A stretch of DNA of 64,000 bases from Escherichia coli (GTDB lineage: Bacteria > Pseudomonadota > Gammaproteobacteria > Enterobacterales > Enterobacteriaceae): assembly GCF_003018255.1 (NCBI RefSeq), contig NZ_CP027440.1; one strand, written 5' to 3'. The position numbers were made by a program, and so were the translations under genes. The number at the start of each line of letters is the position of its first letter. Positions within the stretch are counted from its first letter, which is position 1. Shown here one piece after another: positions 1 through 1,374 of the stretch. The notes under the pieces were generated by a model. It did no database searches and was not told the origin of the DNA. It worked only from the letters and a program-made list of their open reading frames with translations.

Positions 1-925
1 CAATTATCCCGCGCGTAAATTTGGCGTACGTAGCGCTATGCCGACAGGGATGGCGCTCAAATTATGCCCGCATCTCACCTTGCTTCCGGGGCGCTTTGAC
101 GCCTACAAAGAAGCCTCAAATCATATCCGTGAAATCTTCTCGCGCTACACCTCGCGTATTGAACCGTTGTCACTGGATGAAGCCTATCTCGATGTCACTG
201 ATAGCGTCCATTGCCACGGTTCTGCGACCCTCATCGCCCAGGAAATCCGCCAGACGATCTTCAACGAGCTGCAACTGACGGCATCTGCGGGCGTGGCACC
301 AGTAAAGTTTCTCGCCAAAATCGCCTCCGACATGAATAAACCCAACGGTCAGTTTGTGATTACGCCGGCAGAAGTTCCGGCATTTCTGCAAACCTTACCG
401 CTGGCAAAAATTCCCGGCGTCGGCAAAGTCTCGGCGGCAAAACTGGAAGCGATGGGGCTGCGGACCTGCGGTGATGTGCAAAAGTGTGATCTGGTGATTC
501 TGCTTAAACGCTTTGGCAAATTTGGCCGCATTTTGTGGGAGCGTAGTCAGGGGATTGACGAGCGCGACGTTAACAGTGAACGGTTGCGAAAATCCGTCGG
601 CGTGGAACGCACGATGGCGGAAGATATTCATCACTGGTCTGAATGTGAAGCGATTATCGAGCGGCTGTATCCTGAACTTGAACGCCGTCTGGCAAAGGTG
701 AAACCTGATTTACTGATCGCCCGTCAGGGAGTGAAATTAAAGTTCGACGATTTTCAGCAAACTACTCAGGAGCACGTCTGGCCACGGCTGAATAAAGCTG
801 ATCTAATCGCCACTGCGCGTAAAACCTGGGATGAACGCCGCGGCGGGCGCGGTGTGCGACTGGTGGGGCTGCATGTGACGTTACTTGACCCGCAAATGGA
901 AAGACAACTGGTGTTGGGATTATGA
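1..925 (+). CDS. dinB: DNA polymerase IV (DinB), 3' portion; gene starts upstream of window (reading frame begins at position 2)
   Basis: In-frame translation from position 2 gives ...NYPARKFGVRSAMPTGMALKLCPHL..., continuous with the supplied 38..925 ORF; matches DinB C-terminal region. Confidence 0.9.
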   Translation, partial: NYPARKFGVRSAMPTGMALKLCPHLTLLPGRFDAYKEASNHIREIFSRYTSRIEPLSLDEAYLDVTDSVHCHGSATLIAQEIRQTIFNELQLTASAGVAPVKFLAKIASDMNKPNGQFVITPAEVPAFLQTLPLAKIPGVGKVSAAKLEAMGLRTCGDVQKCDLVILLKRFGKFGRILWERSQGIDERDVNSERLRKSVGVERTMAEDIHHWSECEAIIERLYPELERRLAKVKPDLLIARQGVKLKFDDFQQTTQEHVWPRLNKADLIATARKTWDERRGGRGVRLVGLHVTLLDPQMERQLVLGL

Positions 926-1374
926 ATAACATACAAATAAGAGACTATCAGCCTGGCGATTTTCAGCAACTATGCGCTATTTTCCTTAGAGCGGTTACGA
1001 TGACCGCCAGTCAGCATTATTCACCACAACAAATTGCCGCCTGGGCGCAGAATGACGAATCTCGCTGGAAGGAGAAACTCGCGAAATCACAAGTGCGGGT
1101 TGCAGTCATTAATGCAAAACTGGTCGGCTTTATTACCTGCGTTGAACACTATATCGATATGTTATTTGTTGACCCTGAATACACCCGCCGCGGGGTTGCC
1201 AGCGCCTTGTTAAAACCTTTGATTAAGTCTGAATCCGAACTTACGGTGGACGCCAGCATAACCGCAAAACCCTTTTTTGAACGTTATGGTTTTCAGACAG
1301 TTAAGCAGCAGCACGTTGAATGCAGGGGAGCGTGGTTTACTAATTTTTCTATGCGATATAAACCGCAACATTAA
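922..1374 (+). CDS. yafP: GNAT-family acetyltransferase YafP
   Basis: 150-aa ORF; ATGA start/stop overlap with dinB; size and sequence fit YafP. Confidence 0.85.
   Translation: MNNIQIRDYQPGDFQQLCAIFLRAVTMTASQHYSPQQIAAWAQNDESRWKEKLAKSQVRVAVINAKLVGFITCVEHYIDMLFVDPEYTRRGVASALLKPLIKSESELTVDASITAKPFFERYGFQTVKQQHVECRGAWFTNFSMRYKPQH

Follow-up and report, generated by a model that had tools for sequence, protein, structure and literature searches.

A two-gene dinB-yafP operon in Escherichia coli, and the presence or absence of the yafNO toxin-antitoxin pair at its junction

The locus lies at the left end of a 64,000-nt stretch of Escherichia coli DNA (contig NZ_CP027440.1; hereafter, the window) and comprises two genes on the + strand: dinB (positions 1..925, 5'-truncated by the window edge), encoding DNA polymerase IV, and yafP (922..1374), encoding a GNAT-family N-acetyltransferase of 150 aa. 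By sequence and ORF list, dinB occupies a 295-codon frame at 38..925 that is open across the 5' edge, and yafP a 150-codon frame that fills 922..1374. Despite its truncation, dinB passes the NCBIfam equivalog model NF002677 (416 bits; cut-off 256), and YafP passes NF007338 (319.5 bits; cut-off 146) over positions 1-150 of its 150, in each case with the same gene annotated in E. coli JNE23-011 (NZ_AP045067.1). In that genome dinB starts 131 nt ahead of window position 1. Since the window edge cuts dinB, the first 131 nt of the gene, its promoter and its LexA box all lie outside the window; in JNE23-011 the LexA box, CTGTATACTTTACCAG, is found upstream of dinB (locus L001, 1338-1353) and ends 16 nt before the dinB ATG. 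Across 50 kb the window and JNE23-011 differ by scattered SNPs and one indel, so that the two are closely related but not the same strain. Within window 1-2400 they differ at a single base, an A for T at 1052 that results in YafP I44N, at a site where the DNA is invariant in 24 other Escherichia loci and where E. marmotae, Citrobacter, Kluyvera, and Klebsiella have I or V.

The two genes meet at ATGA (922-925), where the dinB stop codon TGA (923-925) shares bases with the yafP start codon ATG (922-924). This overlap is contained in a 7-bp motif, ATTATGA, defined by alignments of two-gene with four-gene loci and present as one copy at 919..925 (+ strand). A weak Shine-Dalgarno-like GGTG, identified by duplex formation with the 16S rRNA 3' end and of putative function, lies within the 3' end of dinB at 910..913 (+ strand). 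The same ATGA junction occurs in the O26 strain 11368 and in nine further two-gene E. coli loci. The original prediction, made from the letters of the window, was that dinB leads directly into yafP with a 4-nt overlap and leaves no room for a yafNO-sized insert; the former was confirmed by the window sequence and ORF list, and the latter by alignment with four-gene loci together with null tblastn and blastn searches of the 64 kb. It had also given the K-12 order, dinB-yafN-yafO-yafP, correctly, as K-12-type genomes have this order, with the yafP start 759 nt further downstream. A promoter and terminator scan of window 1-2400 was uninformative, yielding no more sites than shuffled sequence; the same uninformative scan placed no terminator between dinB and yafP and none right after yafP.

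We have high confidence that window 1-1374 represents the known allele of the E. coli dinB operon that has two genes only. According to Gutierrez et al. (2011; PMC3105422), dinB is accompanied by yafP alone in 40% of the sequenced and 50% of the ECOR strains, the two genes being "always fused" by the ATGA overlap; group A strains mostly carried the four-gene operon and B1 strains the two-gene form, while groups B2 and D were mixed. The allele, its overlap, its frequency, and its phylogroup pattern have thus been known since 2011 and used in reviews since. The two-gene operon of CFT073 and UTI89 shares with this locus the ATGA overlap, the lack of yafNO, a LexA box upstream of dinB, and the chromosomal position lafU-dinB-yafP-...-pepD, with no structural difference from the window; the window haplotype differs in sequence by ~4-5% from B2 (CFT073-like) haplotypes and carries the I44N change relative to its closest genome. 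The identity of the locus is, in our judgment, near certain.

To quantify the allele, a 200-bp query centered on the junction was compared with 5,426 complete E. coli genomes. The uninterrupted dinB-yafP junction was present in 2,568 of them (47%) and the 755-bp yafNO insert in 2,847 (52%), with a median of one copy and a maximum of two per carrier. Since the two sets total 5,415, they are essentially complementary, and empty-junction strains as a rule do not have yafNO elsewhere. Within the window itself, YafN and YafO (tblastn) and the 755-bp insert (blastn) gave no match over the whole 64 kb (best E values, 1.0 and 0.14), i.e., the yafNO type II toxin-antitoxin genes are absent from it. Toxin-antitoxin cassettes are often mobile, and the YafO family does move, because toxins of 32-38% amino-acid identity sit on plasmids of Klebsiella, Enterobacter, and Pseudomonas, so the pair could conceivably have been relocated rather than lost and persist elsewhere in this genome. 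We consider this very improbable, given the empty 64-kb window, the near-complete partition of the 5,426 genomes, a copy number in carriers implying that genomes with an empty junction seldom, if ever, have a copy at a second site, and the fact that near-identical plasmid copies of yafNO were seen solely on F'-type plasmids with the chromosomal dinB region. That the adjoining genes might be an artifact of assembly or annotation has nothing in its favor and can scarcely be entertained, as the junction is shared by 2,568 independent complete genomes and was verified in ECOR strains by PCR and sequencing (PMC3105422).

Alignment of the four-gene form with the window revealed a 759-bp difference with ATTATGA, a perfect 7-bp direct repeat, on both sides. 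The sequence of the four-gene form runs ...GGGATTATGA|TGTATAC...(yafN, yafO)...TTTATATTATGA|ATAACATAC..., and the window, at the junction, ...GGGATTATGAATAACATAC.... The published account describes two ATGA sequences; the actual repeat is 7 bp and not 4 bp. Both copies in the four-gene form are functional, the left one supplying a Leu codon and the stop of dinB and the right one the start of yafP. The three additional matching bases of the right copy (ATT), which precede the yafP start, have no obvious function there, and the match would fit an overlapping junction that already existed and was duplicated when yafNO was inserted. The K-12-type insert lacks both terminal inverted repeats and a recombinase gene; just the 7-bp direct repeat and operator-like motifs of 12-nt periodicity were found. 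The latter are copies of a TATTATGTATA-like motif in the dinB-yafN spacer (four-gene locus L002, 2419-2463), and they probably constitute the YafN operator. A similar motif, TATTATGAATA, is also found at the yafP start of the four-gene locus (L002, 3177-3187); therefore, the 7-bp junction repeat overlaps operator-like sequence, and ATTATGA itself bears a partial resemblance to the TATTATGTATA motifs in the region of the yafN operator. In base composition, yafP (window 922-1374; 43% G+C) and yafNO (L002, 2426-3180; 42%) are both much AT-richer than dinB (54%). The K-12 operon otherwise has orthologs of dinB and yafP with the same promoter region and neighbors, and K-12 shares with the window the deletion of the upstream lateral-flagella (Flag-2) cluster and the downstream rtcB-prfH deletion. 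Relative to K-12, the window lacks the 759 bp that comprise the yafN promoter/operator, yafN, yafO, and the second ATTATGA.

Homologs of YafP are 82% identical in E. marmotae and 56-59% identical in Citrobacter, Kluyvera, and Klebsiella. In these outgroups the gene order is dinB-yafP-(rtcB-prfH)-pepD-gpt-frsA-crl, with nothing between dinB and yafP, and so gene order, synteny, and the lack of a toxin-antitoxin pair are as in the window. The three outgroup genera differ from it in having a TAA stop and a 2-5-nt spacer in place of the ATGA overlap: TAA, 5 nt, and ATG in C. amalonaticus, and TAA, 2 nt, and ATG in Kluyvera sichuanensis and Klebsiella huaxiensis. The ATGA overlap is present in E. 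marmotae, which is without yafNO. Since Citrobacter, Kluyvera, and Klebsiella carry dinB-yafP free of yafNO, the bicistron predates yafNO, and the cassette is an insertion of the Escherichia lineage. An attempt to read the Escherichia ATGA as a 4-nt "scar" by comparison with the Klebsiella junction was dropped, as alternative alignments of this short stretch were equally good. A scan of a genome collection for YafP, whose patterns demand near-exact 8-mers, returned five loci only, one of them an irrelevant GNAT of Thalassoglobus (33% identity).

The history of the cassette within Escherichia was examined in 25 loci (20 from E. coli, four from cryptic clades and E. whittamii, and one from E. 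marmotae) by means of local trees, which are not a recombination-aware phylogeny. On neighbor-joining trees built from yafP and from the 3'-terminal 888 nt of dinB, two-gene and four-gene states interleave. Two B2-type strains of the two-gene form, CCUG73778 and AVS0747, match the B2-type four-gene strains AH21F008 and MS8345 at every site within ±150 nt of the junction and at all but 2 sites within ±300 nt, and up to 45 sites separate them from other two-gene strains; similarly, the two-gene loci of EC21Z-097 and 88COLEC are nearer to four-gene O157 than to any other two-gene locus. In four-gamete tests against the indel, nearly all biallelic SNPs within 200 nt failed, among them SNPs as near as 8 nt (left) and 21 nt (right), and the Fitch minimum on the local trees was 8-9 state changes in 25 loci. 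By these comparisons, the presence or absence of yafNO is decoupled from the flanking haplotypes, with at least 8 state changes among the 25 loci. A third state, dinB-yafN-yafP, occurs in Escherichia sp. E1V33 (NZ_RHJI01000033.1; locus L005, 2676-3010), where yafO alone was deleted between TTAT microhomologies, leaving an intact orphan antitoxin gene and a 10-codon yafO remnant whose TGA overlaps the yafP ATG. This independent event shows that deletions do occur at the dinB-yafP locus. Since the yafNO of B2 strains forms its own distinct branch and insert divergence tracks flank divergence (r = 0.68), the sequences suggest long residence of the cassette in the B2 lineage rather than recent import. 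At the same time, yafNO is only about half as divergent as its flanks (2.4% vs. 4.8% mean pairwise), and between E. whittamii and K-12 the insert differs by 2.0% and the flanks by 6.4-6.9%.

Published opinion on the direction of change is divided. Gutierrez et al. (2011; PMC3105422) proposed at least three deletions by recombination between two ATGA sequences, while Fraikin et al. (2020; PMC7167474), with the opposite emphasis, described the UTI89-like dinB-yafP as an "undisturbed bicistronic operon" into whose intercistronic region yafNO was inserted. In our view, the decoupling would be best explained if the cassette was lost precisely, and more than once, between the 7-bp repeats; recombination may also contribute to the pattern in these 25 loci. 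Homologous recombination is frequent in E. coli and could carry either allele between lineages, giving interleaved trees. In a rival reading, the junction of this strain was never occupied, and the empty and filled alleles have coexisted in Escherichia since a single insertion of yafNO, shuffled across lineages by recombination instead of by repeated deletion. This is a possible explanation to which we accord a real but lesser share of belief: the outgroup genera and E. marmotae have dinB adjoining yafP without yafNO, the cryptic Escherichia clades hold both alleles as E. coli does, the locus is visibly mosaic, the reduced divergence of yafNO is compatible with a cassette spread by recombination, and the reading of the two-gene form as undisturbed (PMC7167474) is in keeping with it. 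However, the four-gamete failures come as near as 8 and 21 nt to the junction, and the flanks of B2 two-gene and four-gene strains are identical over ±150 nt, so that recombination would need crossovers almost at the edges of the insert. Moreover, E. fergusonii is reported to carry the four-gene operon (PMC3105422), and the nearest non-identical relatives of the window haplotype are four-gene strains.

A further alternative, which we regard as unlikely, is that the empty and filled alleles, both of which are found in E. coli (near 50:50) and in the cryptic Escherichia clades, constitute a very old trans-species polymorphism maintained by balancing selection or by a reversible switch, with entry by recombination and precise excision between the 7-bp repeats. 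If this were true, the 7-bp duplication would be a record of the way in which a toxin-antitoxin cassette without a transposase gains entry to an overlapping stop/start junction. Returning to repeated precise loss, the sequence of events that we propose would begin with an ancestral dinB-yafP bicistron in Enterobacteriaceae; yafNO would then have entered this junction in the Escherichia lineage, with ATTATGA left on either side, and the cassette would have been lost repeatedly by precise deletion between the 7-bp repeats, each time restoring the original junction. The original prediction had offered "ancestral" and "deleted" as alternatives. The evidence supports both, at different depths: the yafNO-free bicistron, as found in Citrobacter, Kluyvera, and Klebsiella, came before the cassette, and the trees, the flank comparison, and the four-gamete test indicate repeated cassette loss within Escherichia.

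For a single strain, sequence alone cannot tell a never-occupied site from a precisely emptied one. Because precise deletion restores the exact pre-insertion sequence, the junction is uninformative on the strain's own history, and relatives of its haplotype were therefore sought. The haplotype of window 422-1374 is rare, with ≥99% identity in only 3 of the 5,426 genomes (JNE23-011, JNE112863, and E04), all two-gene. The next-nearest haplotypes (97.4-97.5%) belong to four-gene genomes and are too distant to decide the history, and a four-gene sibling of the window haplotype, with which the deletion might be dated, was found in none of the complete genomes. We lean toward precise loss of yafNO in this strain, and think it possible, with a lower degree of belief, that its site was never occupied.

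Several other presence/absence differences surround the locus. Just upstream of the window (L001, 1-1299), an flhA pseudogene is fused to a shortened lafU, the same Flag-2 deletion scar as in K-12-like strains, though the locus is ~2.5-3% divergent from K-12; in O26 and B2-like strains motA is still present and lafU has its full length. Downstream of yafP, window 1692-2246 holds remnants of rtcB (N-terminal 69 codons) and prfH that correspond to the K-12-type internal rtcB-prfH deletion, to which, compared with 88COLEC and K-12-like strains, a further loss of ~170 bp and a frameshift are added; both genes are intact in many other strains, e.g., O26 and B2 strains. Between prfH and pepD, some E. 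coli strains, and E. marmotae as well, have a small ORF and a ydjM-like gene for a metal-dependent hydrolase (ydjM-like region at L013 4464-5271, L017 3577-4345, L020 4336-5143, and L026 6508-7283), which the window lacks, making the ydjM-like gene another presence/absence polymorphism in the same 5-kb neighborhood. At window 10140-10421, nothing but a degraded integrase fragment follows tRNA-Thr (thrW), and the prophage that occupies this site in K-12, which we take to be CP4-6, is absent. Elsewhere in the chromosome, relA-mazG with or without mazEF is a similar case, in which a toxin-antitoxin pair stands between host cistrons in some strains and the bicistron is intact in others; the locus and the toxin-antitoxin family are different, and the likeness is drawn from a review (PMC7167474).

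As to expression, yafP is read in the +1 frame relative to dinB from an AUG of its own, which overlaps the dinB UGA (AUGA). Overlaps of this type in bacterial operons are a basis for inferring termination-reinitiation. We propose that dinB and yafP would be co-transcribed from a LexA-repressed dinB promoter just outside the window, and that a ribosome ending dinB would re-initiate on yafP by translational coupling, YafP being made as a separate polypeptide. The weak GGUG located 8 nt upstream of the yafP AUG possibly aids re-initiation: duplex energies with the 16S rRNA 3' end were -5.3 kcal/mol for GGUG/yafP, -10.1 for dinB, and +0.4 for yafP in the four-gene context. Transcription from a dinB promoter under LexA and RpoS control has been published for both operon forms (PMC3105422, PMC2814082), and in the four-gene form two promoters serve yafNO, the SOS-regulated one of dinB and one of its own that is autoregulated by YafN (Christensen-Dalsgaard et al., 2009; PMC2814082). 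A YafP-YFP fusion was expressed in two-gene CFT073 as it entered stationary phase and after mitomycin C (PMC3105422). The same paper names "frameshifting" for yafP expression; we would prefer termination-reinitiation coupling.

The discovery value of this locus is small, and its use lies mainly in annotation, where dinB-yafP should be read here as an intact bicistron and not as a damaged operon. To the published record we add frequencies updated over 5,426 complete genomes, a repeat of 7 bp rather than 4 bp, evidence of many independent state changes, and outgroups that place the bicistron before the cassette, thereby reconciling the "deletion" and "insertion" views. For the strain itself, the allele lacks the YafN antitoxin, the YafO toxin (a ribosome-dependent mRNA interferase), and the autoregulated yafN promoter. 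Because these are missing, SOS induction would be predicted to yield Pol IV and the acetyltransferase only, i.e., an SOS response with neither the YafO mRNA interferase nor the internal yafN promoter.
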